Below, one piece after another: positions 1 to 53,304 of a stretch of 53,304 bases of DNA. The notes below the pieces were generated by a model. That model did not search any database. It worked only from the letters and a program-made list of their open reading frames with translations, and was not told the DNA's origin. The position numbers were made by a program, and so were the translations under genes. The stretch lies in IMG/VR virus record IMGVR_UViG_3300018045_000005, positions 1-53,304 of that record, one strand, 5' to 3'. The DNA is from a virus. Its lineage: Duplodnaviria > Caudoviricetes. Numbering within the stretch: position 1 is the first letter of the stretch; every line of letters starts with the position of its first letter.

Positions 1-55
1 CTGCTGGTGGTACTGCACCTGCTGGTGGTACTGCACCTGCTGGTGGTACTGCACC
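1..55. repeat. 55-bp terminal overlap identical to 53250-53304 (circular contig; 3 copies of an 18-bp unit)
   Basis: ctgctggtggtactgcac x3 + c is present at both ends of the window. Confidence 0.95.
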
Positions 56-706
56 CATATTAGGATCAACCATAGCACCTTGAGGTAAAGTAGCGGCTAC
101 CGTACCGAAAGTAGCTGAAGCATCTGGACCACCTTGAGATACAATCTCAATACCAGCCTGATACAATTCAACCATTTGAGCATTTAAATACACACCTGGG
201 CTTTGAGCAGGGTTATTACCAACAACGTTAAATACTACTCGGATATAGTCACCGCGTTTGATCTCTTTCTCACTCTGCATAACTTCATGAGGTTGATAAT
301 GATCACGGTGAAAACAACGAATATCAAAGTTAGTTGACATATTCAACACCCAGTGACCAGGATACCCTTCTTTACTATTAGGTAATACACCCTTTTTATT
401 AGGGATAGGGGAATCACCGTCAACAATCTTCCATGCGAAATCAGGTCGTTGGAACTCACCATTAGGCCAACCTTTAGCACCAGTTGAACCAGCTTGATAA
501 ATTTGAGCACCCCATTCAGTTTCAGCCCAATGTGACTCGCCCTGCTTAGGGATAGCCAAACCTAAATAGATGTTACTTTTAGCTTGACCTGTAGCCGGAT
601 CAATAACAGGCTGATTTGTTTTATCATCTTTGATTACATTACGCACCATCGGATGACCCGCAACTAAACGTCCTACCGGACTGGTAATTTCAATAGCTTC
701 ACTCAT
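1..706 (-). CDS. Phage ssDNA-binding protein-like (OB-fold type), 5' part; continues across the join to 53029
   Basis: Not in the ORF track. ATG at 706 after AAGGTG; MSEAIEITSPVGRLVAGHP...FAWKIVDGDS...EGYPGHWVL...KRGDYIRV...SPGVYLN. 706 + 221 nt = 309 codons in frame after removing the 55-bp overlap. Lies between exonuclease and polymerase. Confidence 0.75.
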   Translation of the reverse strand, partial: MSEAIEITSPVGRLVAGHPMVRNVIKDDKTNQPVIDPATGQAKSNIYLGLAIPKQGESHWAETEWGAQIYQAGSTGAKGWPNGEFQRPDFAWKIVDGDSPIPNKKGVLPNSKEGYPGHWVLNMSTNFDIRCFHRDHYQPHEVMQSEKEIKRGDYIRVVFNVVGNNPAQSPGVYLNAQMVELYQAGIEIVSQGGPDASATFGTVAATLPQGAMVDPNMGAVPPAGAVPPAGAVPPA

Positions 707-720
707 AATATTTTCACCTT

Positions 721-1875
721 TTACTTAAATGCTTTTTCAGCATCTTTAGTTTCGATTTTAGAAACGACCATACTTGATGTACGACTCGCAATTTTATTAA
801 CATTATCTTCAGGAACACCTAGTTTTATAGCCTGTGTAGGTGTAATCACAGTTTTCTTTGAAATATCTAAACCAAATAATAAACCAATATTAATGATGGA
901 TTCTTCAGATAATTCAGAATTCCATTTCAACCTACTACTCTTAGGTTTTAAAGCGTAGTTTTTAACAGGTTTACCACTTTTCAAAGTGTAATAAACTTGT
1001 TGCTCAACTGCATCTTTACGGTCATCAATCATTGACGATATACGTTCAAGTAATAATAATTCTTGACCAGAATCATTACCATCAACTTTACTACCACCTA
1101 CGTTCAATACGTAATCAATACCAGACATCACCGCCCTACGATTAGCTTCACAATGGAACATCGCTTTACAATTAGTACAGTGTGTACCACTACGACAAGT
1201 AGCGTTTGCACCTAATGCTTCATGACCGGAATGATGTAGTTTATTAACATAACCTCGTAAGTCACTGGCTTTTATTTTCCAGCTTCTAACTTTATCACCA
1301 TGATAATATCTTGGTTGAACAATAGTCATCACGATATAAGTGAACTGATCAGCTAAACCATTCACTCCTAGTTCTTCTAAATACCCCTGAGCGTAACCGA
1401 TAAGTTGATTATTTTCATATTCATCTACATATTTATGCCCGTATTTAAAATCCCAAATGTAAAGAGTTTTTTCCTTATCATCATAGGCTCTACAATCCAC
1501 TGTTCCCCAACACTGAGTTTCATGAATCGCAGTAGGGTAAACCTTAGTTTCAACTTGTCGAGTTATACCCATATTCTTGTCGGAACAAGTCTTCAATATA
1601 GAGTCGGTATAAATCTCAACATTCTCGATCATTTCCGAAGTAACAATAACCCCGTTAGGTGCCATTTTATTCAAGAAATCAACCGATGTTTTAATACCAC
1701 CTGAGTTAAGTGAAAAAGACTGTAAAATCTCAGAAGCAACCCAGTGAGCGGCATCACCTTCTTCAGATTCAACAGTTGATTCACCATCATCAAATGCAAA
1801 TTCCATTTGTACCGACCCTGGACAGTTACCCCATCTACCACTGGCAGATATTGATAAAATTGCATGTTCCGACAT
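721..1875 (-). CDS. PD-(D/E)XK (Cas4-like, DUF2800-type) exonuclease
   Basis: HAILSISA..RW..CPGS N-terminus, GTVD...WDFKYG, NNQL..YA, IVQPR, C-terminal CxxCxxxxxC cluster. Confidence 0.85.
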   Translation of the reverse strand: MSEHAILSISASGRWGNCPGSVQMEFAFDDGESTVESEEGDAAHWVASEILQSFSLNSGGIKTSVDFLNKMAPNGVIVTSEMIENVEIYTDSILKTCSDKNMGITRQVETKVYPTAIHETQCWGTVDCRAYDDKEKTLYIWDFKYGHKYVDEYENNQLIGYAQGYLEELGVNGLADQFTYIVMTIVQPRYYHGDKVRSWKIKASDLRGYVNKLHHSGHEALGANATCRSGTHCTNCKAMFHCEANRRAVMSGIDYVLNVGGSKVDGNDSGQELLLLERISSMIDDRKDAVEQQVYYTLKSGKPVKNYALKPKSSRLKWNSELSEESIINIGLLFGLDISKKTVITPTQAIKLGVPEDNVNKIASRTSSMVVSKIETKDAEKAFK

Positions 1876-1883
1876 ATTAATAC

Positions 1884-2597
1884 CTACTCAACTTCTACTA
1901 ATTTATCCCAAAGAGCATCTAACGTAGCCTGATCCGTAACTTCTTTCAAAGCCATTAGATTAGCAACACCAACCATCACCAACTCATTCATAACAGTATC
2001 AAGTGAAATGACACCAAGTTGGACATTACCTGTAATTTCCGAAACCAAGTCTTCGGCAGTAACGTCTAATTCGTCATCACTAGCAGTCTCTACCACTGGT
2101 GGAGGTGTTGGTACTGATGTCTGCTCTACTAAAACGGCTGGTGGTGTCGGTACTGATGTCTGCTCTACCACTGGTGGAGGTGTCGGTACTGCTGGTTCAG
2201 AGGTAACACCGCCTGTAATCTCAGCTTTGACACGATTAAATACATCATCGGGGATATTACGTCTACGAGACCAAACACCTTTAGCGGTTTTCTTTTTAGA
2301 AGAACTATGGATGCGTTCATCCCAAGGTGTACCTTCCTTATCAATCTCTACATCATCTTCACGGGCAACAGCTCCCTGTAATGGGGCACTCGTTCCAGTA
2401 GTTGATTCTTGAGATTGAGTGGTCACATCTGTCGCAGATTCCGCAGGCTTTCCCGCAAAAGCTTCTTCAGCCGACTTTACTACAGGTTGTGATACTTCGA
2501 CATCACCCATGATGTCTTTAATAGCTTCTAATACTTTATTCGCTTTAACTAAAGATGAACTATCATCTAAATTAACTTGAATACTTACTTTACACAT
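1884..2597 (-). CDS. Hypothetical replication-module protein with D..G.PWD.RIH domain and Pro-rich repeats
   Basis: 237-aa ORF with RBS GAGG; DKEGTPWDERIH...WSRRR; three (S/A)VPTPP repeats. Confidence 0.8.
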   Translation of the reverse strand: MCKVSIQVNLDDSSSLVKANKVLEAIKDIMGDVEVSQPVVKSAEEAFAGKPAESATDVTTQSQESTTGTSAPLQGAVAREDDVEIDKEGTPWDERIHSSSKKKTAKGVWSRRRNIPDDVFNRVKAEITGGVTSEPAVPTPPPVVEQTSVPTPPAVLVEQTSVPTPPPVVETASDDELDVTAEDLVSEITGNVQLGVISLDTVMNELVMVGVANLMALKEVTDQATLDALWDKLVEVE

Positions 2598-2618
2598 CGT
2601 CTTTTCCTCTCTTCGTTA

Positions 2619-2647
2619 TTGACGGTGTGGTCATTATGGAATAAAAT
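2619..2647 (+). promoter_or_regulatory. sigma70-type promoter for the helicase operon
   Basis: TTGACG-17 nt-TAAAAT. Confidence 0.7.
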
Positions 2648-2661
2648 GCCTACATCGTCAA
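2633..2661 (-). promoter_or_regulatory. Overlapping opposite-strand sigma70-type promoter for the exonuclease/SSB/polymerase operon
   Basis: On the minus strand TTGACG-17 nt-CATAAT. Confidence 0.7.
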
Positions 2662-2702
2662 TAGTGAGTTTGAAAAAAATGAATAATATTTTAAAAGGTG
2701 CA

Positions 2703-4376
2703 ATGAACATCTCTTTACGAAACTATCAAATGGAAGTTTCTAATAAAATCGATCAATCATGGGATGACGGTAACGAAAATGTACTAGCTGTATTACCGAC
2801 GGGTGCTGGTAAAACCGTGATCATGGCATACAAAGTTAGTCAAAATAGAGGTGTGACCACTGTTATAGCCCATCGTGCAGAATTAGTTAACCAAATATCT
2901 ACCACTTTGGCTAAATTCGGATTACATCATCAGATTGTCGCATCTAAATCTACAATAAAGGATGCTGTTAAATCACACCTTGAAGAATGTAGGGCTTCTT
3001 TTTACGATCCAAATTCTAAAATCATCGTAGCCAGTGTTGATACGTTAAATAAACGTAAAGGAAAAATGGATCACCTTTTAAATCAATGTACGTTAACTTT
3101 AATAGATGAATCCCACCATGTACTACGTGATAATAAATGGGGTAAATCAGTATCACTGTTTCCGAACGCTAAATTATTAGGGGTTACGGCTACACCGATC
3201 CGAACAGACCGTAAAGGGTTAGGTAGTCATGCCCACGGTGTATTTGACGACATGGTTTTAGGTCCATCAATGAGATGGTTGATCAACAATGGGTATTTGA
3301 CAGATTACAAAATATTTTCACCACCTTCAGACTTAATATTGACCGAAGAAGATATTAGTAAAAATACAGGTGAGTTCAAATCAGATAATGTTAAAAACGC
3401 TGTTCAGAAATCACACCTTGTTGGTGACGTAGTTGAACAATATCTTAAAATCGCACCAATGAAACAAGGTATCACTTTCGCAGACTGTATCGACAATGCT
3501 ACTTTGATCGCTGAAAAATTCAAAAAAGCAGGTGTTAAAGCGGAAGTGATACACGGTGGCACCCCTGACCATATACGTTCAAAATTCATCAAACAGTTTA
3601 AAAATAAAGAACTTCAACAGTTGGTGAATGTTGATCTATTTGGTGAAGGGTTTGATGTACCTGGTATCGAAGTGGTGTCAATGGCTAGACCAACAATGTC
3701 ATTCGCTTTATTCTCACAGCAATTCGGTAGATGTTTGAGAATAATGGACGGTAAACAATTCGCTATCATCATCGACCATGTAGGTAACGTTATCAAGTTT
3801 GCTCGTACACACGGGTTACCTGACGCAGAAATCGAATGGACTCTGGACGCTGGTGAATTTTCATCTAAAACAAACGGTGTTAACGACGCTATACCAGTTA
3901 AAGCGTGTGTAGAATGTCATCAGACTTACGAAAAGATATACAAACAGTGTCCTTTTTGCGGTCACCACCAACCACCTGCCGAAAGAAGTGGTCCGGAATT
4001 CGTAGATGGTGACTTAACCGAATTAGACGCTGAAACTTTAGCAAATATGAGACGAGACATAAATAAAATCGACGAATCAACACAATCGATGTATCAACGT
4101 ATGAAAAACGCTGGTGCTTCAGAAATGGTCGCAAGATCAGCAATCAAAAGACATGGTGAACGAAGAGAAGAAATAGATAAGTTACGAGATTCAATGGCGT
4201 GGTGGTGTGGTTACCATAAAGCTGTTGGGGAAACAGAAGATATGATCTACAAGAGATTTTATTTCAAGTTCGGCATCGATATAAACACTGCTCAAACTCT
4301 AAGTAAAAAAGAAGCAATCGAATTACAAGGTAAGGTTAACAATGACACCAATCGAATTACAGTCATGGGTGTATAG
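2703..4376 (+). CDS. Superfamily 2 (DExH) helicase with C-terminal zinc finger
   Basis: LPTGAGKT, IDESHH, TATP, QQFGR, CxxC-x10-CPxC. Start moved to ATG 2703 behind AAGGTG. Confidence 0.93.
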   Translation: MNISLRNYQMEVSNKIDQSWDDGNENVLAVLPTGAGKTVIMAYKVSQNRGVTTVIAHRAELVNQISTTLAKFGLHHQIVASKSTIKDAVKSHLEECRASFYDPNSKIIVASVDTLNKRKGKMDHLLNQCTLTLIDESHHVLRDNKWGKSVSLFPNAKLLGVTATPIRTDRKGLGSHAHGVFDDMVLGPSMRWLINNGYLTDYKIFSPPSDLILTEEDISKNTGEFKSDNVKNAVQKSHLVGDVVEQYLKIAPMKQGITFADCIDNATLIAEKFKKAGVKAEVIHGGTPDHIRSKFIKQFKNKELQQLVNVDLFGEGFDVPGIEVVSMARPTMSFALFSQQFGRCLRIMDGKQFAIIIDHVGNVIKFARTHGLPDAEIEWTLDAGEFSSKTNGVNDAIPVKACVECHQTYEKIYKQCPFCGHHQPPAERSGPEFVDGDLTELDAETLANMRRDINKIDESTQSMYQRMKNAGASEMVARSAIKRHGERREEIDKLRDSMAWWCGYHKAVGETEDMIYKRFYFKFGIDINTAQTLSKKEAIELQGKVNNDTNRITVMGV

Positions 4377-5493: not shown

Positions 5494-7713
5494 CTAAGAG
5501 TTAGCAAAACGATTTATCATATTAGGCATATCGTAAACCTTACCTTTGCCGATCCGTCTAGGTTCTTCAACTTCAAGGAATTTTTTCAACTCAGCACTCA
5601 TGCGACGGGCATCCTTATCAGGTAATTGTAACTCTCTACACACGTCGGTAGCGGTCATCTGTCTAACGCGGGTTTCATCAGCGTTGTAATTCTTCAATAG
5701 CAATTCTTGAATAGGATTTACCGCAGTGAAAGCATCATTGGACTCAATCAACATATTCATCTCTTCAGGACGCAACCAAGTAACATCAATATTATTCAAC
5801 ATCATGGTTTTAATCTGTGCCCAAAACTGTTGCACGTCAACATTATGATCCGGATTCATACCTTTACCGACTTTAAGAGACCAAAAACGTCTGTTTCCAG
5901 TCGGATCATGAAGATAATCATTAGGGTTAACCGTCGCACAAAATATTGTTTTACGTGGGTATTTTGACTCAGCATGAGCGAATGGGTTACGGAATTCATC
6001 AAAATCACGGGTTATGAAGGACTTAAGGTGGGCTATATCCGACTTTCTAAAGGTAGCGTCCAATTCACCCAACTCGACCATCCAATAGGATATGGACTGT
6101 TTCACGCTGTCTCGATCAGCAGGGTTAAGTGTCACCCCCTCTTTAAAGATGTCAGCATTAGAACCGCACAGTTTTGAAAACCAACGTGTCTTACCAAGGT
6201 TCTGAGCACCTTGTAACACTAATACCCCTGATGACTTAGCACCGTACGGGGTGTATATCAAATCCAATGCAGATATAGCCCATTTACGAATAAGCATACG
6301 ACCCATTTTGATGTCTTTAAGGTCCAAGGTCTTAACCATATCCTCAAATCTATCCACACCATCCCAAGGTTTACTATCGATCCAATTTACAACTGGGTGG
6401 TAAGCATTGTTGTTCGCGTATAAGAGGGCAAAACTTTGTAAGTTGTCAACCGGATACTCAACCGTGATCGCTAATGATCTGAGCGTTGCCAAGGCACTGT
6501 TTTTACTGTTATCAGCAACAAAATTTGCACCAGGTATACTAATTTCAACCTCTTTACTCATAATGTTGTAGCGACAGACAACCTTGAAATGCTCAATCAG
6601 TTGGCAAAAATTTGGAAAGTTACCCTTCGGTTTACCGTTACCTTTCACATCGGTAAAACCAATATGGAAATAATCCCAACCTTTACCGATCATTGAACCG
6701 TCACCGTCGGTAGATGTAGGTTTCTCAGGTGCGGGTGTATTTTCTAAAGTCTTTTCTTTACCACCTTTATAAAAATCCTGTTGCTGTGATTTAGCCCGTC
6801 CGATAGTGGTACCTAAATAACTACGATGGGCTGTCCACTTATCTCTCGCTAAACCAGACTCCCACATCAAGTCTTGGATACGCTCACAGTTGTTACCTGT
6901 CCAAAATGCTAATCGTTGAGCAAGTGAAGCATCGGCACTTGATCTGTCAAAATCCTTACCCTCCATTTGGGCAGGAAATGCTTCAGCCAAAACATCTACA
7001 TTACATTCCCACAAGTCTTTAAAACTGACACTATTCCCACCAAAGGCTGATTGTGCAGACTTAGATTTAAGCATCTTCTTAACTAATTCAGCGTTACTCT
7101 CCGGACCATTCCATGAAGGATCAGGTTCGGTTGTCCATTCATCAGAATTATACTTAACAGAGGGGGTGAAATATTTATCAACTAAAGGTTGTAGATAGGG
7201 GGTGTAATCTAAATAAGCGTTACCAGTCATGGTATCAAGATGACCAAAAGCCACGAAACGGTCTTGGTGATAGAACTCTAACCCTAACTCTATATTCTTA
7301 CATGAGTGTTCAGGTGGTGTACCGTAGCCAAAAATATGAAGACCTGTACCGGAACTGGAAATTTCAATAGCCGCCCCAGGTAACATATTAATCACATCGA
7401 GTGCTGTCTGAGTATATTGACCATTTTCAATACACCCGTCAATGTCCACAAACCAAAATGGATCGGTTGCAGTGAAAGAGAAACCTAGACCGAACTGAGA
7501 TAGTGGGTCCAATCGTTGAATATCTTTTAACCCTTTTAAGGCATCTTCAGAAGAGAGCCAAATGTTAGGGTCATGAGCGTTAGACAAACCGCCAGTTTTT
7601 GCATTTAAAGGTAACTTATCGGTTTTACCATTACCCCTTGGAACTAATTTATAAACAATGAATTGATCATAATTACCGAATGATTCTATCGGTGCTGGAA
7701 TTTTTTCTAACAT
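5494..7713 (-). CDS. DNA primase-helicase (prim-pol N-terminus, VapE/SF3-like ATPase, C-terminal winged helix)
   Basis: FVDIDGC, EISSSGTGLHIF, DRSSAD, GAQNLGKT, ELGELD, DPTGNRRFW. Confidence 0.9.
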   Translation of the reverse strand: MLEKIPAPIESFGNYDQFIVYKLVPRGNGKTDKLPLNAKTGGLSNAHDPNIWLSSEDALKGLKDIQRLDPLSQFGLGFSFTATDPFWFVDIDGCIENGQYTQTALDVINMLPGAAIEISSSGTGLHIFGYGTPPEHSCKNIELGLEFYHQDRFVAFGHLDTMTGNAYLDYTPYLQPLVDKYFTPSVKYNSDEWTTEPDPSWNGPESNAELVKKMLKSKSAQSAFGGNSVSFKDLWECNVDVLAEAFPAQMEGKDFDRSSADASLAQRLAFWTGNNCERIQDLMWESGLARDKWTAHRSYLGTTIGRAKSQQQDFYKGGKEKTLENTPAPEKPTSTDGDGSMIGKGWDYFHIGFTDVKGNGKPKGNFPNFCQLIEHFKVVCRYNIMSKEVEISIPGANFVADNSKNSALATLRSLAITVEYPVDNLQSFALLYANNNAYHPVVNWIDSKPWDGVDRFEDMVKTLDLKDIKMGRMLIRKWAISALDLIYTPYGAKSSGVLVLQGAQNLGKTRWFSKLCGSNADIFKEGVTLNPADRDSVKQSISYWMVELGELDATFRKSDIAHLKSFITRDFDEFRNPFAHAESKYPRKTIFCATVNPNDYLHDPTGNRRFWSLKVGKGMNPDHNVDVQQFWAQIKTMMLNNIDVTWLRPEEMNMLIESNDAFTAVNPIQELLLKNYNADETRVRQMTATDVCRELQLPDKDARRMSAELKKFLEVEEPRRIGKGKVYDMPNMINRFANS

Positions 7714-16562: not shown

Positions 16563-16835
16563 ATGTCATACCAGTGTCGATGCCGATCATGTGGTGCACG
16601 TAATACCTTAAAACGTCACCCTGATGATTACGTCAGAGATAAAAAGTGCACATCTTGTAAGGCTGTTAACCCTTACAGAGTGGATTGGTATCGAACACTA
16701 GGTGAAGAATCTAAAAAGAATACTTGCCACTGTGACGGGTTGCATTATCCACATCGTAAAGGGTCGTCAGTCTGGTGCCGTGAGCACCCTACTGGACCAA
16801 CTGAAGAAGATTATAAAATGAGATACAAATTATGA
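16563..16835 (+). CDS. Cys/His-rich putative zinc-binding protein
   Basis: CRCRSC, CTSC, CHCDGLHYPHRKGS..C. Confidence 0.75.
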   Translation: MSYQCRCRSCGARNTLKRHPDDYVRDKKCTSCKAVNPYRVDWYRTLGEESKKNTCHCDGLHYPHRKGSSVWCREHPTGPTEEDYKMRYKL

Positions 16836-17155
16836 ACAATATTATCGAATGGTTAAATGGTGAAGACACGGGGATGTCTTCAAGATTTATGGTAGCGGTA
16901 CTGACTGGTACAAAATGGGTGGATGACTTTGATGCTCAACCTCACCCCCACGACGTATCAGATTTTGGCAGATGTTACCGGATGCTTAACGCAATTCCTC
17001 AGTTTAAAAACGACTTAGATAAACTCAAACCTTACGGTGATGTGTGGCCTAAGTTGATCGACAACTGGGATGAAATGACAAGACTTTACGAACGTGATAG
17101 ATCGATTGGTAGATGTCCTGAACTTTATAAATTAATGAAAGAATTAGGAGCGTAA
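16832..17155 (+). CDS. Hypothetical protein
   Basis: 107 aa; WLNGEDTGMSS, PHDVSDFGRC; ATGA overlap. Confidence 0.8.
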   Translation: MNNIIEWLNGEDTGMSSRFMVAVLTGTKWVDDFDAQPHPHDVSDFGRCYRMLNAIPQFKNDLDKLKPYGDVWPKLIDNWDEMTRLYERDRSIGRCPELYKLMKELGA

Positions 17156-17157
17156 TA

Positions 17158-17328
17158 TTGAAGAATTGCGGTGTATGTGAACACGTCAGAACACAGTTGA
17201 CGGTAAATATCAAAACTGGCTACTGTAGTCTAAATGATATGGTTGTACCTCAACATTCTGAGACGGGTAAACCTATTCAATATTTAAGAGTACCTAATAA
17301 TTGCCCACTAAAGGAACGTAAACAATGA
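17158..17328 (+). CDS. Small Cys4 protein (56 aa, TTG start, not in the ORF track)
   Basis: AGGAG RBS; KNCGVCEH...GYC...PNNCPL; stop overlaps the thyX ATG. Confidence 0.65.
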   Translation: MKNCGVCEHVRTQLTVNIKTGYCSLNDMVVPQHSETGKPIQYLRVPNNCPLKERKQ

Positions 17329-18089
17329 GTCATCAAACAGAGTTAAACCCACAATATATTGATCACATGGGTAGTGATATGAGAGCGGTTAACATGGCTA
17401 GACAGTCATTCGGTAAACGTAAAGATGAATCGCAACCCCTAGACGCTAAAGATAAAGGTTTGATCCGATTCTTAGCTGAAGGTATTCGTTCATGTGATAA
17501 AGCTGATCTATTGGATCAGATGACACAATGTGCTGATCCTGAAGAGATGATTGGTCTTGCTAAGAAACTTTTCCCTCAAAAGCATTGGGTGCCACTAGCC
17601 CACAATATGATCAGTATCAGTATGGAAGCACCTGTACCGATCCGTACACAGTGTTTCAAACATAAGATTGGCTTCGTTGAATCAGAAGAATCTCGACGTT
17701 ATATCTCCGATGAACCAGTAGTATTTTTACCTAAACAATTTAACGCGGCACCGTCGAAAGACATCAAGCAGGGTAGTGCTGGTATCCACCATCGTAATGA
17801 CTACTGGCTCAAACGATACAAGCGTCACACTGATAATGCAGTGAACACTTACATTGAGATGGTAGCTGATGGTATCGCCCCCGAAGATGCCCGATTTGTA
17901 CTACCTCAAGGCACTATCGTTAACTGGGGGTGGACTGGTTCACTATTTGGGTTTGCAAGCTTCTATAACCAGCGTAGTGACGCCCATGCTCAGTCACACA
18001 TTCAAGATTTGGCACAGAAGGTGAGTGACATCATTTCACCACTATACCCTACGGCATGGGAAGCATTAACAGGAGTTAAAGCAAAATGA
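17325..18089 (+). CDS. thyX: FAD-dependent thymidylate synthase
   Basis: DHMGSD..VN.AR.SF, KHKIGFVESEESRRY (RHR-x7-S-x-R variant), APEDARFVLPQ, RSDAHAQ. Confidence 0.92.
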   Translation: MSHQTELNPQYIDHMGSDMRAVNMARQSFGKRKDESQPLDAKDKGLIRFLAEGIRSCDKADLLDQMTQCADPEEMIGLAKKLFPQKHWVPLAHNMISISMEAPVPIRTQCFKHKIGFVESEESRRYISDEPVVFLPKQFNAAPSKDIKQGSAGIHHRNDYWLKRYKRHTDNAVNTYIEMVADGIAPEDARFVLPQGTIVNWGWTGSLFGFASFYNQRSDAHAQSHIQDLAQKVSDIISPLYPTAWEALTGVKAK

Positions 18090-18712
18090 TGAACAAGGTG
18101 TACCGAGTTAAAAGTATTAGTCGTAGTGACGCTTCACCTTTCATTTTAGATATTCACTATGCACATCGATTCCCATCGATTAGTTATTACTTTGGTCTTT
18201 TCCGTAACAATGAATTAGTTGGAACGGTGACTTTTGGTACACCACCTTCAGCACCGTTAAAATTAGGTATCGCTGGTGGTAATTTTAAAGAAGATGTTTT
18301 GGAATTAAACAGATTAGTTTTGAAAGATAATTTAAAAAATGAAGCCAGTTTCCTAGTCTCAAAATCTTTAAAAATGTTACCTCGTAATAAAATAATCGTG
18401 TCTTTCGCTGATACATCTCAAGGTCATTCAGGAATAGTTTATCAAGCGTGTAATTTCTTATATTCAGGTCTGTCAGCTAAAAGAACCGACTGGGTTGTTA
18501 GAGGTAAAGAACATTTACATGGTCAAACTATAGCTGATGAATTTAGAGGTTGTAAAAATAGAGCAAAGTTGATGCGTGAGAAATACGGTGATGACTTTTA
18601 CTTAAAACCAAGACCTAGAAAACATCGTTACTTAATGGTGATAGGTGATAAAAAATATAAGAAGTTAGTTATGAAAAATTTAAAATACAAATTAGAGGGT
18701 TACCCAAAATGA
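18086..18712 (+). CDS. Mom-like DNA adenine modification enzyme (GNAT fold)
   Basis: HYAHR, FGLF....LVG...FG.P, LELNRL, SFAD..QGH.G.VYQA.NF.Y.G, KHRY. Confidence 0.85.
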   Translation: MMNKVYRVKSISRSDASPFILDIHYAHRFPSISYYFGLFRNNELVGTVTFGTPPSAPLKLGIAGGNFKEDVLELNRLVLKDNLKNEASFLVSKSLKMLPRNKIIVSFADTSQGHSGIVYQACNFLYSGLSAKRTDWVVRGKEHLHGQTIADEFRGCKNRAKLMREKYGDDFYLKPRPRKHRYLMVIGDKKYKKLVMKNLKYKLEGYPK

Positions 18713-18894
18713 AAGCATATTTAGTAACAGTAACATTCACCAATGGTGGAAAAGAAGGCGTAATGTTCACCGATAAAGCCGATGCATTAGATGCACTTAA
18801 CGGTACTCAATCTGGTTCAACACTGGCTATTAATTGGTTTGAAGCTTACGGTGATACCGACTGTCCTGTTGAGATGGTGGAGATTGAATTATGA
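18709..18894 (+). CDS. Hypothetical protein
   Basis: 61 aa, ATGA overlaps on both sides. Confidence 0.7.
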   Translation: MKAYLVTVTFTNGGKEGVMFTDKADALDALNGTQSGSTLAINWFEAYGDTDCPVEMVEIEL

Positions 18895-20000
18895 GTCACA
18901 CAACATTCAATCAAAATAAAGTTAACCACCTAACCCAACCGATGTTCTTTGGTGAGTCAGTGGGGGTGGCACGTTACGATGAATTACGCTTCCCGTGGGT
19001 TGATAAGTTGACAGAAAAACAACTTGGGTTCTTTTGGAGACCGGAGGAAATTGATCTATCAAGTGACCGTGCAGAGTTTGAAGCATTACCTGAAAATGAG
19101 AAGCATATATTCACATCGAACCTAAAGTATCAAATCCTACTTGATTCAGTACAGGGTCGTTCACCAAATATGGCCTTCTTACCTATCGTGAGTCTACCCG
19201 AAGTTGAGACATGGGTTGAAACATGGTCGTTTAGTGAGACAATCCACAGTCGTTCATACACTCATATTATCCGTAATATATTCAATCACCCTGGTGACGT
19301 ATTTGATCACATTATTGATGTACCGGAAATTGTTGAACGTGCGACAAGCGTAACTGAAGATTATGATGAGTTGATCAGACTGTGTTCAATTAAGACCGGT
19401 GATGATCAACCTTGGACTGATGAACTTCAAATGCAAGCTGAAGATGCACTGTTTAAAACAATGGTCTCAGTCAACGTATTGGAAGCCGTTCGTTTTTACG
19501 TGTCATTCGCTTGTTCATACGCATTTGCTGAACGTAAAGAGATGGAAGGTAACGCTAAAGTTATCAAGATGATCAACCGTGATGAGACACTTCATTTAGC
19601 TTTCACACAGCAAGTATTACAGCACTGGATCAACGGTAAAGATAGTGAAGCAATGCAACAGGCCGCTATTCGTAACTTTGATTTTATCCATAAATGTTTC
19701 AAAGATGCGGCTCAACAGGAAAAAGAGTGGGCTGATTACCTGTTCCAAGATGGTTCAATGATTGGACTTAACGCGGCAATTTTACATCAATACATTGAGT
19801 ATCTAACTAATGTCCGAGTTAAGGCACTGGGTTTAGCACCAATTTATGACGATGTGGTTAACCCTATCCCTTGGGTCAACGCTTGGACTAATAGTGATAA
19901 TGTACAAGTGGCTCCACAAGAATCAGAAATCACGAACTACCTTACTGGTGCCGTTGATTCATCAGTTAAAGATGATGATTTTAAAGATTTTAACTTGTAA
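18891..20000 (+). CDS. nrdB: Class Ia ribonucleotide reductase beta subunit
   Basis: FFWRPEE, LDSVQGR, ETIHSRSY (radical Tyr), LEAVRFYVSF, RDETLH, DGSMIGLN, VQVAPQE. Confidence 0.97.
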   Translation: MSHTTFNQNKVNHLTQPMFFGESVGVARYDELRFPWVDKLTEKQLGFFWRPEEIDLSSDRAEFEALPENEKHIFTSNLKYQILLDSVQGRSPNMAFLPIVSLPEVETWVETWSFSETIHSRSYTHIIRNIFNHPGDVFDHIIDVPEIVERATSVTEDYDELIRLCSIKTGDDQPWTDELQMQAEDALFKTMVSVNVLEAVRFYVSFACSYAFAERKEMEGNAKVIKMINRDETLHLAFTQQVLQHWINGKDSEAMQQAAIRNFDFIHKCFKDAAQQEKEWADYLFQDGSMIGLNAAILHQYIEYLTNVRVKALGLAPIYDDVVNPIPWVNAWTNSDNVQVAPQESEITNYLTGAVDSSVKDDDFKDFNL

Positions 20001-20007
20001 ATAATAG

Positions 20008-20051
20008 TTGACACTTTGACGACATGAAACTACAATTAACCATGTCGTCAA
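20008..20051 (+). promoter_or_regulatory. sigma70-type promoter overlapped by an 11-bp inverted repeat
   Basis: TTGACA-17 nt-TACAAT; ttgacgacatg (20016-20026) and catgtcgtcaa (20041-20051). Confidence 0.75.
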
Positions 20052-20068
20052 TAAAGGAGATAAAAGAA

Positions 20069-20260
20069 GTGCCTGATGAAATGGACGTTATCCAAGATAA
20101 CAATACTAAACATGATGATTACGCGGCTAAAAATATCCGTCGAAAAGTCAACCGACCTAAAGCCAATGGTCGTTGTTCATATTGTGATAAAGAGTTAGTT
20201 GACCCGTTACCTACTCAAATTTATTGTAATGGTGAGTGTGCAACCAAGGATTCAAAATGA
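20069..20260 (+). CDS. Small C4 zinc-finger protein, TraR/DksA-like
   Basis: GTG start after AAGGAG; PDEMD...CSYC...YCNGEC. Confidence 0.55.
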   Translation: MPDEMDVIQDNNTKHDDYAAKNIRRKVNRPKANGRCSYCDKELVDPLPTQIYCNGECATKDSK

Positions 20261-20424
20261 TTAAACTATTACTAAGTGGGGTGCGTTACGTATTCACCCT
20301 ACCTGAAGCAGTTGAGTTCGGTAAAGTAAAAGGTTTAAGAGTGGATGATACCAATCGTAAAGGGGTGTCTAAGAACCCTTTAAACAATGATTATAAAAGT
20401 CAAAAAAGGAAGTCAAAAAGATGA
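20257..20424 (+). CDS. Small basic hypothetical protein
   Basis: ATGA overlap, AAGGA RBS. Confidence 0.55.
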   Translation: MIKLLLSGVRYVFTLPEAVEFGKVKGLRVDDTNRKGVSKNPLNNDYKSQKRKSKR

Positions 20425-20714
20425 GTGATGAATTAGTAGACGGTAAAACTTGCAACTGCTTTAACGAGCACTTGGAAAGACTCGGAGAGAAAGTTATTGC
20501 TGACATTCTCCCAGAAAACGCAGATCGTGACTCGCTCCACCTCGATTGGTCAAATAAGGTTTTTAGATTAGATGGTAAGTCAAACAATGTGATGTTAAAG
20601 CTGAACTGCGAGTATCACAGAGTTAAAAAAGACGGGACACGGTATCGTAACAAAACCAACCGCCCTATCACCGTAGCGATGAGTTTTTGCCCGTTCTGCG
20701 GAACTGAATATTAA
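20421..20714 (+). CDS. Hypothetical protein with CNC...CPFCG zinc ligands
   Basis: 97 aa; N-terminal CxC and C-terminal CPFCG. Confidence 0.75.
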   Translation: MSDELVDGKTCNCFNEHLERLGEKVIADILPENADRDSLHLDWSNKVFRLDGKSNNVMLKLNCEYHRVKKDGTRYRNKTNRPITVAMSFCPFCGTEY

Positions 20715-20738
20715 AAAAAAATAAAGGAAGTCAAAAAG

Positions 20739-21299
20739 ATGAGTGATGAATTAGTAAAAAAGTTTTTAGAAGTATCTAACGTAGCTTTACCAGCTACCCA
20801 TTCGGGAGCGGAAGTTAATCAAGCGATTGAGTTTTATCGTCGTAAGATTTGGCCTTCAGAAGTCCGTGAGACCATGTTGGCTTACGAGAATAATGATCAA
20901 GTTGAAATGTATGATGGTGTTGGTGATCAGTCGTTTATCGTTATCGCTGTCGGTCTCATGGGTGGTGATAACGATGACATGAATAACATCTTATCAGGTA
21001 GTGTTGAAATGTCTGGTATTAAACAGGTTGAGGTTTTAGAACACATCATTACGACTGTTTGTGAGAGTAATTTGACTAAGTTTGATACTACTGATGATGA
21101 AGTTGTTAAGACTTCTCAAAAATACCTAGATTTAGGTATCGAAACATATCGTATTTGGAATGAAAAGCATAAATTATTCGCTACTTTCTCATCGTTTGAT
21201 CAGACTGATCACAATGGTAAAGAGTGGCCCGCTAATAAGCTTGTTAAATCAGCCGTAAACTACCGTGAGCCAGACTTTAGAGCGATCCTTCATGTCTAG
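20739..21299 (+). CDS. MazG-like all-alpha NTP pyrophosphohydrolase
   Basis: SEVRET...EMYDGVGD...ESNLTKF...KLVKS..Y.EPD. Confidence 0.75.
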   Translation: MSDELVKKFLEVSNVALPATHSGAEVNQAIEFYRRKIWPSEVRETMLAYENNDQVEMYDGVGDQSFIVIAVGLMGGDNDDMNNILSGSVEMSGIKQVEVLEHIITTVCESNLTKFDTTDDEVVKTSQKYLDLGIETYRIWNEKHKLFATFSSFDQTDHNGKEWPANKLVKSAVNYREPDFRAILHV

Positions 21300-21528
21300 T
21301 GGTAAGAAACCCTATGTTCCTGTAGGGGATCATCTGATCATCATTTTGGACGGTGATGACGATGGTCTTAAATGGGAGCATCACGCTGAAGGGTTAATAT
21401 CAGCGAGAGAAAGAGGTCATCAGCTAGTCGAAGAGATAGAGGATGCCACACAATGTAAAGTACTACACTGTGTTTACGATTCACAATTTCTACCTTGGAG
21501 TCCTAAATGTCCGTCGAAGAAAAAATAA
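21292..21528 (+). CDS. Hypothetical protein
   Basis: 78 aa, overlapping its neighbours in the operon. Confidence 0.6.
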   Translation: MSSGKKPYVPVGDHLIIILDGDDDGLKWEHHAEGLISARERGHQLVEEIEDATQCKVLHCVYDSQFLPWSPKCPSKKK

Positions 21529-21821
21529 GAACAATCATCGATGAGAAGTGTGACGGTAATGTCGCAACTTTTGCTAATGAAATTGGTTTCACCCGCCAAC
21601 AAGTTTATAACTGGTTAGAAGGTGATGTATTGACTATCTCAACAAAAGCTAAAGAGCGTATTGAAGAACGTTGGCCTGAGTACAATGGTATTTGGTGGTG
21701 GTTAAACTTAGATAATACCAAACACGTTGAAACTTTTGATGAAGTGAGACGTATGGAATTTGATTTAACTAAACCTATCATCATCTACCCTTCCCATATC
21801 GGGTTTAAAGTGAGCCAATGA
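21507..21821 (+). CDS. Cro/XRE-like HTH protein
   Basis: GNVATFANEIGFTRQQVYNWL. Confidence 0.75.
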   Translation: MSVEEKIRTIIDEKCDGNVATFANEIGFTRQQVYNWLEGDVLTISTKAKERIEERWPEYNGIWWWLNLDNTKHVETFDEVRRMEFDLTKPIIIYPSHIGFKVSQ

Positions 21822-22228
21822 TGATCGTTGATGGGTTTTCTATAGGACAGTTGTCTAAGTCTACCGGTTTATCAAAATCGGTGCTTATACAGCGTTATAA
21901 GAAGCTTAAGAGACGTGGTATACCGGTCACTAAAAAGTCAATGAGGTTTAACACCCCTCTTGACTTTTATGGTAAGACTTTAAAACAAATCTCAATCGAG
22001 ACAGGTGTTGGTGTCACGGTCTTAAGTTCTCGTCACAACACTTATATCCACACTCGTAATTTGACACGTTGGCATCGTAAGAAGTACGGTGGTAAATCGA
22101 TCAATGAATGGGTGATAGTGTTGGGGGTGACTCGATCTAAAGTGTTAGAATCTTTAGATCAATTAGGTATGGGTCACGTTGATTGTAATGTTGAGTTGGA
22201 AGATTTGAGGGAAATTGTTAAAACTTAG
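21818..22228 (+). CDS. Protein with repeated short HTH-like motifs
   Basis: SIGQLSKSTGLS, TLKQISIETGVG, SINEWVIVLGVT. Confidence 0.6.
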   Translation: MMIVDGFSIGQLSKSTGLSKSVLIQRYKKLKRRGIPVTKKSMRFNTPLDFYGKTLKQISIETGVGVTVLSSRHNTYIHTRNLTRWHRKKYGGKSINEWVIVLGVTRSKVLESLDQLGMGHVDCNVELEDLREIVKT

Positions 22229-28935: not shown

Positions 28936-29313
28936 TTAAAACTCTAAGTCATAAGTGAATTGAAGGTTGATCACATCATAGTTATCGGTCAATTTACCAA
29001 AAGGCCATGATGTTTCAACCCTTATGTTTTTGTAAGTTAATGAATTTTTAGGGTAAATCGTGTATTCACCACTCACTGCTTTAGGGTTATCCTCATAACC
29101 GTTAGCGGCAATCACACCTAAACCGTAATAACCCCAGTGTTTTGAGACTGAAGCCATTACGGATAATTTATCATAACTATTTTGATACGCACCGATACCG
29201 TAAGTAAAGTTATCAGTGTATTCTACTGCCGCGCCATAATTTTCATTATTGAACAATTCATTATCATCTGAATGAAGTGACAGCGTGATTAATATTAACT
29301 GTAATGTTGTCAT
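28936..29313 (-). CDS. Small outer-membrane beta-barrel-like protein (PagP-like pattern)
   Basis: SLH...NNENYG...Y...GAYQNSY...S...G...GY; alternating strands; C-terminal YDLEF. Confidence 0.55.
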   Translation of the reverse strand: MTTLQLILITLSLHSDDNELFNNENYGAAVEYTDNFTYGIGAYQNSYDKLSVMASVSKHWGYYGLGVIAANGYEDNPKAVSGEYTIYPKNSLTYKNIRVETSWPFGKLTDNYDVINLQFTYDLEF

Positions 29314-50092: not shown

Positions 50093-50717
50093 CCGATAAC
50101 ACACCTTGTTGTAAAGATTTAGTGGCTATGGAGTCAATACCGTCACTACCATCCTCACCTTGTATTAACGAGTTTTCAAATTTAGCAAATTCTTCACTAC
50201 TAACAAGTTTTCTAGCTGTCTCAATCAATAATTCATCAGACATATCTATAATCAAAGCACGTTGGGCTTCATCTAAACCTACTTCACGGTCAACCTTATC
50301 GGAAAATAAATTAACCGACGACCGGATGATCTTAAAAACTTCTGTTAAAGCGTCATAAATTTCTTCAGTACGCCATAAATCACCAGCCTTCTCTTCATAT
50401 TTTTGACGAGATAAAGCACTATCCCAAAACTCTTTACGAATTTTAACTGGTAATTTATGAGGTGGCATTTGTTCAATTAAACGCACAACCTGTTCATCAG
50501 TGGGGGCGGCTAACACACTGGCGGCATCTGCAATATCATAAACTGGGTAACTATTACGTTCACCAACAGGTTTAACACCAGCTAAACGCACCCCCACCGT
50601 CTTTTTATCAATTCTGAATAATTTGGCTAGTGCGGTTTTAGATAACCCTTCCATCAATGATACGGTAGCTTCCGAACTACGGTGATGTGCCGTAGCCCCA
50701 CTTTTATTTTCTGCCAT
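50085..50717 (-). CDS. Terminase small subunit (Nu1/DUF1441-like)
   Basis: N-terminal HTH (SKTALAKLFRIDKKTV); RKEFW...R..YE..AGDL; directly upstream of TerL. Confidence 0.88.
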   Translation of the reverse strand: MAENKSGATAHHRSSEATVSLMEGLSKTALAKLFRIDKKTVGVRLAGVKPVGERNSYPVYDIADAASVLAAPTDEQVVRLIEQMPPHKLPVKIRKEFWDSALSRQKYEEKAGDLWRTEEIYDALTEVFKIIRSSVNLFSDKVDREVGLDEAQRALIIDMSDELLIETARKLVSSEEFAKFENSLIQGEDGSDGIDSIATKSLQQGVLSDE

Positions 50718-52962
50718 TTAATAAAGGCTCCACTAATTTTTTAGTCTCAGCAATATAGAAATCATAATTTAAATTATCTCGATTGAAGGTAGACATATCG
50801 TTACATTCAGTACATAGCCAACCACCTTGAATTGAAGTAGTTGTCGGATAATATCGACTCTTATTCCCCGTGTGAATTCTAGCATCCCAAGGCATACCTG
50901 CCGTGTCTAAATCAACACCTTCAGGGTTGGAAATATTACGAATTTCATTCGACACTTGATTAAAGAATTCATCAGTCAATCCAGATCGACGCTTCCAACC
51001 ACCCTCAACGTATTTATCAGCCACGGGGATTACTTTCTTCAAATACCCACCTGTTTTAGATACATAATATCTAGTAGTACCCTGTAACTCTTCAGTTTCT
51101 ACAGCATATTCGATATTCAATACATTCGACCGCGGTATTTTAGTACGTAACATGAAGTCGTTAATATCTTCATGATTTTTAATAAACGTTTCAATATCTT
51201 CACCCCTAACCAAAGCGGCTTCAGCGGCCTTAGCAACCACGATCATACTACGGTTCTGGTGCCAACCTAAACGCCCATCATCTTCAACTTTCTTATGCTC
51301 GTAAGCACCGATTCGTTTAAGATCACCACTACCATCATACTCTGCGATATAGTTGTTCACATCTCTAACAAACATTCTTGAATATTCAGCACGTTCCAAT
51401 TCTAGTTTGGTTAAAGTTTCCCACCATTTACAGACCGCATGAACATGATCCTTATAAATACGAGGATATTTAATAGTCAAACCATCAGTATTAATTTGCA
51501 CCATTTCAAGACTTGGTGTTTTGATCAACTGATCAGCCAACATACACAGTGATAATTGACCATTAATAGTGATGGACATTGTATATAAAGGGTCATAGAA
51601 CGGTGAATATTGATTGTTAGAGTCACCGTAAACACCATTCAAAGCAAGTTTTAACATACCGTTTTCAGTAGGGTGAGTCTTCTTCGGGAACTGCTTACGC
51701 TGAAGATAAACACCTTCATAAATATCACAGAACTCTTCCCCTAAATGAGCAGGGTAAAGACGGTTTGAAATACCTAAATTCGGGTAATAACTAGCGACAT
51801 CCCAATCTTCTAAAATATAATCTTCATCAGCGTGAACAATTTGGGATTCAACAGACCCGTGAATACCACCTGTACCAAAATCATATTGGAAACCGTCGAT
51901 AACACAGTTTAAACCGGACTTATCTTTTAAACCACTTACCATTTTAATATTAGGATATTGACTCATCACATCTAGTATTTGAGGGCATTGACTTAAATAC
52001 ACGTAGCCAGATTTACGTTTCAACCCTAAAGATTCTCGATCCGCTGAAGTAACACCTTTCAACTGAATAACAGATTGATCCATCATTTTAGCCATAGCAG
52101 GTGTTACATCAACATATTCAAATACACCTTTAGTTTTGTTGATAACTTTCTTATTCAACCAATCCAAAACCATGTTGAAAGCAGGGTGTTCAAAACTTAC
52201 ATACGGTAACACGACCCCACCTAATGAAATCATAGCACGAGGGGTTTGAAGTGGGATTTTACGATTAGTAACTGGGTCTTTACCGAAGCACTTAATTCCT
52301 GACGCTTCAAGTTCCATAATGAAAAAATCTTTACCGATTTTAGTGTCATTATGGTTCATAAAATCCCGACCGTATTTCTCAGTCAATTCAACTCGAAATT
52401 TAATCTGTTTCATCGAATGTTTAAGAAATGATTTAGTTTCACCAACATCATGTTTGTTATATCTTAAAGTCACGTCTTTCGCGTAATCATCTAACACTGT
52501 GCCAGGTTTATAAGGTAAATCAATAATATTCTCAGAACTCATATTGAATTCTAAAATCTTAAGACTTGTCGCACGAGCCTTATTATCGAAGTGATGGATT
52601 TTAAATAAATCTATTTGTTTAATGAATCTATCATTAGGCCAAATCATCTGATTAAAACCACCAAAACCATCAATAATACTCTGTGACTTCTGATACAAAC
52701 CTTGATACCCGATAGTCGGGTCTTTCATGAATTCATGCATTATTGGGTAATCAAAATTCAAATTATTATAACCGACCAGTACATGATTATCGTTAGCTAA
52801 CCATGTAAGAAAATTGAATAAGTATGTGGAATCATCTCGACGATCACTTATCTCAAAAGTGTAAACATCACCAGTCGAAAAGTTATCAAAAACTACCGAA
52901 AAGAAATTAGGGTATATTTCTTCATCATAAACCCACAATTTTAGTAAATCTAACAAATTCAA
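50704..52962 (-). CDS. Family B DNA polymerase with 3'-5' exonuclease
   Basis: YDEE, GYNN..FD, YN.HDV (exonuclease); DVASYYPN, KLALNGVYG, NTDG, DVNNY; TTG start after AGAGG. Confidence 0.93.
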   Translation of the reverse strand: MNLLDLLKLWVYDEEIYPNFFSVVFDNFSTGDVYTFEISDRRDDSTYLFNFLTWLANDNHVLVGYNNLNFDYPIMHEFMKDPTIGYQGLYQKSQSIIDGFGGFNQMIWPNDRFIKQIDLFKIHHFDNKARATSLKILEFNMSSENIIDLPYKPGTVLDDYAKDVTLRYNKHDVGETKSFLKHSMKQIKFRVELTEKYGRDFMNHNDTKIGKDFFIMELEASGIKCFGKDPVTNRKIPLQTPRAMISLGGVVLPYVSFEHPAFNMVLDWLNKKVINKTKGVFEYVDVTPAMAKMMDQSVIQLKGVTSADRESLGLKRKSGYVYLSQCPQILDVMSQYPNIKMVSGLKDKSGLNCVIDGFQYDFGTGGIHGSVESQIVHADEDYILEDWDVASYYPNLGISNRLYPAHLGEEFCDIYEGVYLQRKQFPKKTHPTENGMLKLALNGVYGDSNNQYSPFYDPLYTMSITINGQLSLCMLADQLIKTPSLEMVQINTDGLTIKYPRIYKDHVHAVCKWWETLTKLELERAEYSRMFVRDVNNYIAEYDGSGDLKRIGAYEHKKVEDDGRLGWHQNRSMIVVAKAAEAALVRGEDIETFIKNHEDINDFMLRTKIPRSNVLNIEYAVETEELQGTTRYYVSKTGGYLKKVIPVADKYVEGGWKRRSGLTDEFFNQVSNEIRNISNPEGVDLDTAGMPWDARIHTGNKSRYYPTTTSIQGGWLCTECNDMSTFNRDNLNYDFYIAETKKLVEPLLNGRK

Positions 52963-53028: not shown

Positions 53029-53304
53029 TTAAACAATATGACCTGCTTGACGCATTTGATCATCAGTCCAATTAGCACCTTTCAAGGCTTGATAAGTGAA
53101 ACCTTGTTGGATAGCTGTCGCTGTCATTTGCGGTTCTGCTGGTGGTACTGCCGCAACTGGTGGTACTGCACCTGCATTATTAACCATACCGTAGTCTGGT
53201 TGTACTGCACCTGCATTATTAACCATACCGTAGTCTGGTTGTACTGCACCTGCTGGTGGTACTGCACCTGCTGGTGGTACTGCACCTGCTGGTGGTACTG
53301 CACC
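53029..53304 (-). CDS. 3' part of the SSB-like gene that starts at 706 (repeat-rich linker plus short C-terminal domain)
   Basis: In frame across the join; (GAVPPA)n, (GAVQPDYGMVNNA)x2, ...GFTYQALKGANWTDDQMRQAGHIV. Confidence 0.8.
   Translation of the reverse strand, partial: GAVPPAGAVPPAGAVPPAGAVQPDYGMVNNAGAVQPDYGMVNNAGAVPPVAAVPPAEPQMTATAIQQGFTYQALKGANWTDDQMRQAGHIV
53163..53304. repeat. 39-bp x2 and 18-bp x3 in-frame tandem repeats
   Basis: gtactgcacctgcattattaaccataccgtagtctggtt x2, then ctgctggtggtactgcac x3. Confidence 0.92.

Follow-up and report, generated by a model that had tools for sequence, protein, structure and literature searches.

Bacteriophage T7 gp5 is a family A DNA polymerase with a thumb-inserted thioredoxin-binding domain that binds a host protein, and the phi29 DNA polymerase has two subfamily-specific insertions, TPR1 and TPR2, which are credited with its intrinsic processivity without a sliding clamp. 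Besides, circular permutation by duplication and truncation is a general mechanism of protein evolution; thumb insertions conferring clamp independence on phage polymerases and permutation via tandem duplication are both known principles. Here we describe a 53,304-nucleotide stretch of viral DNA (Duplodnaviria; Caudoviricetes; IMG/VR virus record IMGVR_UViG_3300018045_000005), referred to below in its full length as the window, which encodes a family B DNA polymerase (PolB) and a protein of 237 amino acids (aa), P0001. In both evolutionary and structural terms, a segment of this polymerase is very probably a permuted and inserted copy of a mini-domain that occurs free-standing in the small protein. 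The mini-domain would comprise roughly 50 residues, arranged as half A then half B in the small protein and permuted, B then A, in the polymerase.

Two halves in swapped order

The two proteins and their parts are located in the window as follows.

50704..52962, minus strand: family B DNA polymerase P0002, 752 aa, TTG start (phrog_1252, E value 7.7e-193)
51028..51072, minus strand: thumb beta-hairpin, aa 631-645, just ahead of the insert (DSSP strand and class alignment)
50845..51027, minus strand: entire insert in comparison with class III PolBs, aa 646-706 (class alignment)
50938..51003, minus strand: polymerase half B, aa 654-675, G-G-W-K-R-R strand and helix 664-675 (BLASTP, profile-profile, DSSP)
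50911..50937, minus strand: polymerase B-A linker, aa 676-684, of hypervariable length in homologues
50854..50910, minus strand: polymerase half A, aa 685-703, L-D-x-x-G-x-P-W-D-x-R-I-H-T-x-N-K-S-R (BLASTP, profile-profile, DSSP)
1884..2597, minus strand: P0001, 237 aa (phrog_11133, E value 8.8e-13; phrog_29341, E value 1.6e-5)
2289..2345, minus strand: P0001 half A, aa 85-103 (P-W-D-E-R-I-H invariant in 29/29 homologues)
2217..2279, minus strand: P0001 half B, aa 107-127 (bridges 109 and 111, helix 117-128)

The database copy of the polymerase (P0031) has 750 aa. P0001 consists of an N-terminal helix, a disordered linker, the A-B module (aa 85-127; window 2217-2345, minus strand), a Pro-rich linker, and a C-terminal helical domain. 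The consensus of half A is D-x-x-G-x-P-W-D-x-R-I-H and that of half B is G-x-W-K-R-R ... F-N-x-V-x-x-E-I. One of the families matched by P0001, phrog_11133, also matched polymerase half A (aa 679-703, E value 2.6e-4).

BLASTP comparison of P0001 with the polymerase gave exactly two significant high-scoring segment pairs, in swapped order: A with A (10 of 27 residues identical, E value 2e-5, P0001 77-103 versus polymerase 677-703) and B with B (11 of 25 identical, E value 3e-4, P0001 103-127 versus polymerase 650-674). Against the polymerase, the module reached 30.4 and 27.3 bits, and neither value was attained in any of 300 module shuffles, the highest top score being 20.0 and the highest second score 18.1. 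Furthermore, when 97 distinct free modules were compared with an alignment of homologues of polymerase residues 640-712 by profile-profile alignment (hhalign), A paired with A at a probability of 98.4% (E value 6e-15) and B with B, in swapped order, at 96.4% (E value 1.4e-9). The A alignment stopped and the B alignment started at the same query position, 25. Flanking controls, in which the free-module profile was compared with polymerase residues 700-752 and 600-655 and polymerase half B with residues 700-752, gave no match (E values of 0.29 to 0.75). We also considered a degenerate second B past A in the polymerase (G-G-W ... Y-Y-I-x-E), which would give the order B-A-B' with no permutation, and rejected this candidate at hhalign E values of 0.29 and 0.75. 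At the DNA level, no similarity beyond 10-base words was found between the P0001 and polymerase segments, and for this reason the event is old and not a recent duplication.

A previous examination of the letters and open reading frames (ORFs), hereafter the sequence-only reading, had proposed two homologous halves in opposite order, opened at a K-x-x-x-G-x-W hairpin. The strings that it quoted were both found in the two translations, the BLASTP, shuffle, and profile-profile results support the swapped homology, and the shared query position 25 places the break in the short A-B loop, as had been proposed. Its interval for the polymerase segment, 50850-51005, falls in the right region and is out of frame, 2 to 4 bases off at each end; the in-frame interval is 50854-51003 (aa 654-703).

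The predicted structures of the two segments resemble each other in the same permuted way. In the AlphaFold2 model of P0001, residues 81-130 had predicted local distance difference test (pLDDT) values of 84-94 and the flanks values below 50, and DSSP assigned bridges to residues 85, 91, 97, 103, 109, and 111 and, after these, a helix to residues 117-128. The polymerase model has bridges 656 and 658 and helix 664-675 first and bridges 685, 691, 697, and 703 behind them, with pLDDT values of about 86-96. The half A bridges fall on homologous residues (I85/L685, P91/P691, H97/H697, and K103/R703), as do those of half B (W109/W656 and R111/R658), where a 12-residue helix starts eight residues later (117-128 and 664-675). 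A bridge and helix pattern is thereby predicted to be common to P0001 and the polymerase. Comparison of the P0001 model with 48,161 PDB chains by VIA gave weak matches only, with Z values no higher than 5.6, and these all fell in the C-terminal helical domain (175-237), the part of the protein that this comparison in effect covered. BFVD yielded uncharacterised members of the family and no others (20 at an E value of 0.001 or better), and the ESM Atlas returned unnamed viral clusters only for the free module and, for the polymerase insert, no match above 0.88.

The polymerase and its thumb insertion site

Judging from its motifs and predicted fold, the window polymerase is a divergent family B subfamily member. 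The assignment leans on these two lines of evidence because the polymerase matched no Pfam family at an E value of 1 or better, the Pfam family B DNA polymerase model included; a profile of the polymerase alignment matched PDB PolBs only at an E value of 4.9e-4, in the palm. The 3'-5' exonuclease motifs of PolBs are Exo I (D-x-E), Exo II (N-x-x-x-F-D), and Exo III (Y-x-x-x-D), and the corresponding residues D13, E15, N66/N67, D71, Y168, and D172 were invariant or at least 90% conserved among 103 sequences. The polymerase motifs of the family are A (D-x-x-S-x-Y-P), B (K-x-x-x-N-x-x-Y-G), and C (T-D), plus K-x-Y. Residues invariant in the 103-sequence alignment were D388, Y393, and P394 in motif A; K438, N442, Y445, and G446 in motif B; N491, T492, D493, and G494 in motif C; and K549 and Y554 in K-x-Y. 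The AlphaFold2 model of the polymerase, with a 103-sequence alignment, had a mean pLDDT of 94.8. In Foldseek it matched the archaeal PolB 4k8x at an E value of 3.6e-13, gave 385 PDB matches at 0.001 or better, and resembled archaeal, bacterial, viral, and eukaryotic PolBs. Compared with KOD (8s84) by VIA, model residues 1-752 aligned with chain residues 129-749 (Z of 16.1 and root mean square deviation of 6.3 over 468 residues).

The insert segment sits past the K-x-Y strands, in the C-terminal region aligning with the thumb. In the alignment of PolB classes, the B-A block is an insertion in this thumb region relative to more distant PolBs: the site spans 61 aa in the window polymerase versus 6-7 aa in eight class III PolBs, whose flanks are contiguous. 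The thumb beta-hairpin (aa 631-645) was kept across every PolB class compared. This agrees with the thumb-loop insertion put forward in the sequence-only reading; the graft is not peculiar to this polymerase, as the B-A order was conserved through the whole PolB subfamily.

For the homologue set, polymerase residues 560-752 were used as a query against a 5.8-billion-protein collection, and the best 120 of 468 hits were combined with P0002 into a set of 121. Nearly all of the best 120 have G-x-W-K-R ... E-[IL], a highly variable linker, and then W-D-x-R-I-H-T-x-N-K-S-K. The 121 polymerases were scored with half-profiles made from free proteins only (independent E value below 1e-3).

Both halves, B-to-A: 57/121 polymerases
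Both halves, A-to-B: 0/121 polymerases
Half A only: 57/121 polymerases
Half B only: 1/121 polymerases
Neither half: 6/121 polymerases

The B-A linker ranges from about 0-3 aa in short forms through 9 aa in the window polymerase to more than 50 aa in CP-T1.

An unbiased set was obtained from 80 viral contigs found with the free protein as query, 38 of which hold a PolB within the stored flanks. These 38 PolBs were assigned to classes by inspecting their C-termini by eye.

Class I: 17/38 PolBs, with B-A or a degenerate form at the site
Class II: 5/38 PolBs, with an unrelated Y-x-T-G-D-H-Y...S-G-K-Y insert, 38-49% identical to the query
Class III: 13/38 PolBs, with no insert, the following strand coming immediately after the R-W-Y-Y-S hairpin, 22-34% identical to the query
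Truncated: 3/38 PolBs, the ORF stopping before the thumb

The truncated frames (L012, L020, and L047) end after about 484-506 aa, just beyond motif C, and these polymerase genes may be split, interrupted, or frameshifted. The class II insert (L036, L039, L048, L061, and L074) is a Y/H/K/G-rich stretch of 47-51 aa with the pattern Y-x-T-G-D-H-Y-x-H...S-G-K-Y. Another distinct insert occupies the same thumb site in the Rheinheimera Barba polymerase, which is 40.7% identical to the query. Because class II and Barba polymerases have inserts unrelated to B-A at this site (47-51 aa) and others have none, the thumb site is a permissive cassette position, at which B-A is one occupant among at least three unrelated inserts, or none. 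Five class III PolBs (L037, L050, L052, L070, and L071) have an insertion of their own of roughly 50 aa just upstream of the thumb hairpin; its motif, W-G-E-G-P-R-K...N-G-W-x-K-x-G-R, is absent in the window polymerase.

We also built a tree of 92 polymerases, with the last 135 residues removed, near-duplicates filtered from 154 rows, and a class III root assumed. The Barba and class II pairs lay outside or beside the module-bearing groups, at a poorly resolved fork. One early gain of the module in PolBs is compatible with this tree.

The free module and its replication cassette

P0001 and 28 relatives share 25-34% overall identity, and P-W-D-E-R-I-H is invariant in all 29. Among 65 modules, the P, W, D, R, I, and H of this core were invariant (65/65) and the E was present in at least 90%. 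A profile of these 65 sequences was searched against 1.84 billion cluster representatives, of which 5,980 matched at an E value of 1e-3 or better and 4,253 at 1e-10 or better. Among the 150 matches listed, the 146 newly returned proteins had a median length of about 245 aa, and all 150 matches covered profile positions about 2-49 in one stretch. A Pfam scan of P0001 at an E value of 1 or better gave just a low-complexity FH1 match and no module family, and the matching PHROGs, phrog_11133 and phrog_29341, are families of unknown function.

Two matched stretches were detected by HMMER in 9 of the 150 listed proteins, and two complete A-B copies were confirmed in five (P0152-P0156), with about 120-145 residues between the copies, around a helical domain. 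The inner B-linker-A of these tandem proteins equals the polymerase arrangement, variable linker included, and we infer that proteins of the form A-B...A-B provide a route to the permutation. On one viral contig (L057), a second module gene (16783-17565) lies about 6 kb from the first.

The surroundings of the module gene were compared in 80 viral loci. It was directly followed by an exonuclease gene in 71 of the 80, and the neighborhood contained a single-stranded DNA-binding protein (SSB) in 60, a divergent SNF2 helicase upstream in 72, and a primase-helicase in 38. The free module was found next to all three PolB classes; thus, its presence is independent of whether the polymerase carries a copy. 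Together with its far larger distribution, this suggests that the free A-B form is the source and is wider and probably older than the polymerase form.

In Stenotrophomonas phage Silvanus (L001) and Pseudoalteromonas phage B8b (L002), genes labelled "RecT" are orthologues of P0001 (222 and 301 aa) in the same syntenic slot. A RecT identity of P0001 was rejected, as the Pfam scan gave no RecT family match and the GenBank label could be traced to BLAST annotation chains. The label on these orthologues is probably wrong.

The window, a complete virus record, carries the same 55 bp at its two ends (direct terminal repeat, 1-55 and 53250-53304), and the break falls within the SSB gene. Because of this, the P0001 and polymerase genes belong to one operon-like gene string, the minus-strand order on the circle being P0001, exonuclease, SSB, and polymerase. 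The other replication genes considered here are the following.

721..1875, minus strand: exonuclease, 384 aa, directly downstream of the P0001 gene (phrog_69, E value 1.8e-60)
2..706, minus strand: Gp2.5-like SSB/annealing protein, N-terminal 235 aa (phrog_7011, E value 6.9e-65)
53029..53304, minus strand: SSB C-terminal 91 aa, with Pro/Ala repeat linker and G-x-x-W-T-D tail motif
5494-7713, minus strand: gp4-like primase-helicase (PHROG scans)
2577-4376, plus strand: SNF2-type helicase (PHROG scans)

PHROG scans of the 63 ORFs of the window added a VRR-NUC-like endonuclease to the replication module and identified structural genes of the siphovirus type (terminase, portal, major head protein, tape measure, and J-like central fibre). 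The same scans found no sliding clamp or clamp loader, and to this extent the absence of a clamp stated in the sequence-only reading holds. In the exonuclease family, C233, C236, and C242 are invariant, C18 is at least 90% conserved, and D127, D142, and K144 are also conserved. The four conserved cysteines and the D...D-x-K pattern suggest a Cas4-like PD-(D/E)XK nuclease with an iron-sulfur cluster.

Once read through the terminal-repeat junction, the SSB has 308 aa. In its linker DNA (53157-53304), units of 18 bp (x3.9) and 39 bp (x2.5) are repeated in tandem, and these encode G-A-V-P-P-A repeats. Behind the Pro/Ala-rich linker, SSBs of these cassettes have tails of three types. The commonest, present in the window SSB (53029-53130, minus strand), is a motif of roughly 25 aa, G-x-T-Y-E...G-W-T-D...L, and the others end in ...D-R-I-P-F/Y, which we take to resemble the tail of E. 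coli SSB, or in ...P-P-R.

Elsewhere in the window, a block at 17325-22228 on the plus strand contains genes for thymidylate synthase, a Mom-like DNA modification protein, the ribonucleotide reductase small subunit, and a MazG-like pyrophosphatase; this nucleotide-metabolism and DNA-modification block hints at modified DNA. In the tail-fibre region, a 125-aa ORF (28936-29313, minus strand) gave a PagP-like lipid A acylation match (phrog_3600, E value 1e-9).

Origin, function, and comparison with known systems

The explanation that we consider on balance probable, taken as a whole, combines a permuted thumb insert of the free mini-domain, a tandem origin, and a DNA-grip function. The insert would have been placed between the thumb hairpin (aa 631-645) and the strand that follows it (aa 707-710). 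The A-B loop of the free protein (about 3-7 residues) would have been opened, both ends being attached to adjoining strands of the thumb sheet, and a short linker, hypervariable in length, would have connected the former N and C termini; the permutation would bring the two ends of the insert together. As to the origin, the inner B-linker-A of a tandem A-B...A-B protein may have been captured once, early in one PolB subfamily. The basic hairpin R-I-H...K-x-K...G-x-W-x-R-R may give the polymerase extra grip on the primer-template duplex, and the module of the free protein would serve as the anchor of a flexible hub beside the exonuclease and SSB.

DNA grip as the function of the insert can be proposed only tentatively, ahead of partner docking and of a structural or other role. 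It is favored by the thumb location, by the lack of a clamp among the 63 scanned ORFs, by the net charge of the 20 residues from R-I-H onward (+4 to +8, mean +6, in 97 free modules), and by the conserved K657, R658, R695, and H697 together with the N-K-S-K turn in polymerases. Several observations weigh against such a grip or against the explanation as a whole. The whole module is near-neutral, with a mean net charge of +0.5 in free modules and -1 in the window insert, and the polymerase halves are just mildly basic (+1.1 and +2.0). Besides, the insert is not indispensable, because class III PolBs without it occur in seemingly equally clamp-less cassettes, and the invariant residues may simply be required to hold a tiny fold together. 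The similarity of the folds is a DSSP match of two AlphaFold2 models and could just reflect the similarity of the sequences. In 57 of the 121 homologues, half B was too diverged for the free-protein profile, short polymerase forms lack the D-x-x-G-x-P start of A so that the complete fold is not always retained, and the set of 121 is enriched for module carriers because the query was the polymerase C-terminus. Furthermore, the module carriers form two groups in the tree at the poorly resolved fork, and the module label needs at least two changes.

The main rival function, which we regard as unlikely, is that of a shared docking handle. In both the polymerase and the small hub protein, the mini-domain would then bind the same partner, for instance the SSB core, one of the two helicases (SNF2 or primase-helicase), or a host factor that is conserved, so that the polymerase and the exonuclease/SSB hub are recruited to one place. 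An analogy would be T7, where a thumb loop of the polymerase receives the gp2.5 and gp4 tails. Long disordered linkers flank the free module, as in hub and adaptor proteins, the core is invariant in 29/29 relatives despite an overall identity of 25-34%, as expected of an interface, and the synteny with replication genes is strict (exonuclease in 71/80 loci, SNF2 in 72, SSB in 60, and primase-helicase in 38). However, the tail types of SSB differ among phages that keep the invariant module, which makes the SSB tail unlikely as a universal partner, and the free module stays invariant with or without a polymerase copy. When the module was folded in complex with three candidates (exonuclease, SSB core, and the last 91 aa of the SSB), the score was 0.00 (mark 0.32) in runs without controls, which speaks neither for nor against an interaction.

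The insert would have no activity in common with the free protein if it were structural filler, that is, an interchangeable decoration of a permissive thumb loop that stabilises the thumb or touches the polymerase's own exonuclease domain, the homology reflecting opportunistic capture of a neighboring coding sequence. Such an account fits the presence of at least three unrelated inserts, or none, at the same site in related PolBs, the free variation of linker length, the loss of parts of A in short forms, and the location of the source gene in the same operon. We nevertheless consider it improbable, since D693, R695, I696, T698, N700, S702, K657, and R658 reached 90% conservation or more among 103 polymerases with an overall identity of just 44-57%, which is stronger conservation than filler predicts. 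Still further from our expectation, and quite improbable, is the absence of any true permutation, with A and B being independent short motifs that recur in replication proteins without a fixed order and without folding into one unit. Each half has just about 20-25 residues, only A was detectable with the free-protein profile in 57/121 polymerases, and more than 50 residues can separate the halves, as in CP-T1; against this, the halves were always together and adjacent in the free proteins (150 listed matches), the order was B-to-A in 57/57 polymerases with both halves detectable, and AlphaFold2 was confident in both contexts, with the same bridge residues.

A permuted thumb insert derived from the free mini-domain would be a clean natural case of circular permutation coupled with domain insertion, in which the gene that probably served as source lies in the same operon and tandem intermediates still exist. 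Phage proteins with the module make up a very large family that lacks annotation, with a near-invariant seven-residue core and a fixed position at the head of the cassette. It is doubtful whether the P-W-D-E-R-I-H mini-domain acts, moreover, as a universal "replisome handle" that has escaped recognition in a very large phage group. If it were, one fold would dock the recombination hub and, in permuted form, the polymerase to the same DNA site or partner, and the thumb of a PolB subfamily would contain a built-in factor for processivity or coupling. The permissive PolB thumb loop may be useful for understanding and engineering clamp-independent polymerases, and the module would offer a direct experimental handle on the cohesion of clamp-less PolB replisomes in siphoviruses. 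A search of the full main texts of papers found, in its listings, no description of the mini-domain family, its cassette position, or a permuted PolB-thumb insertion taken together, and an anywhere-match search for spellings of the P-W-D-E-R-I-H-type motif gave no match; nothing relevant was among the papers listed, in accordance with the sequence-only reading, which knew of no description.

Among known systems, T7 gp5 resembles the window polymerase in having a lineage-specific thumb insert of some tens of residues in a phage replicative polymerase without a clamp, and the likeness extends to the replisome, as the window also encodes a gp4-like primase-helicase and a Gp2.5-like SSB. However, the window polymerase belongs to family B, and its insert is itself a predicted folded mini-domain, homologous to a phage-encoded protein. 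The phi29 enzyme is likewise a family B phage polymerase with subfamily-specific insertions, although TPR1 and TPR2 belong to protein-primed polymerases and are located in the palm and fingers region, whereas the window insert lies in the thumb; the phi29 insertions are not known to represent permuted copies of a free-standing domain. With permutation by duplication and truncation, the window polymerase shares the swapped halves, the junction in a loop, the existence of natural tandem A-B...A-B proteins, and a variable B-A linker that corresponds to the inter-copy linker of the tandem proteins, and it differs from this mechanism in that the permuted unit is also inserted into a loop of another protein.

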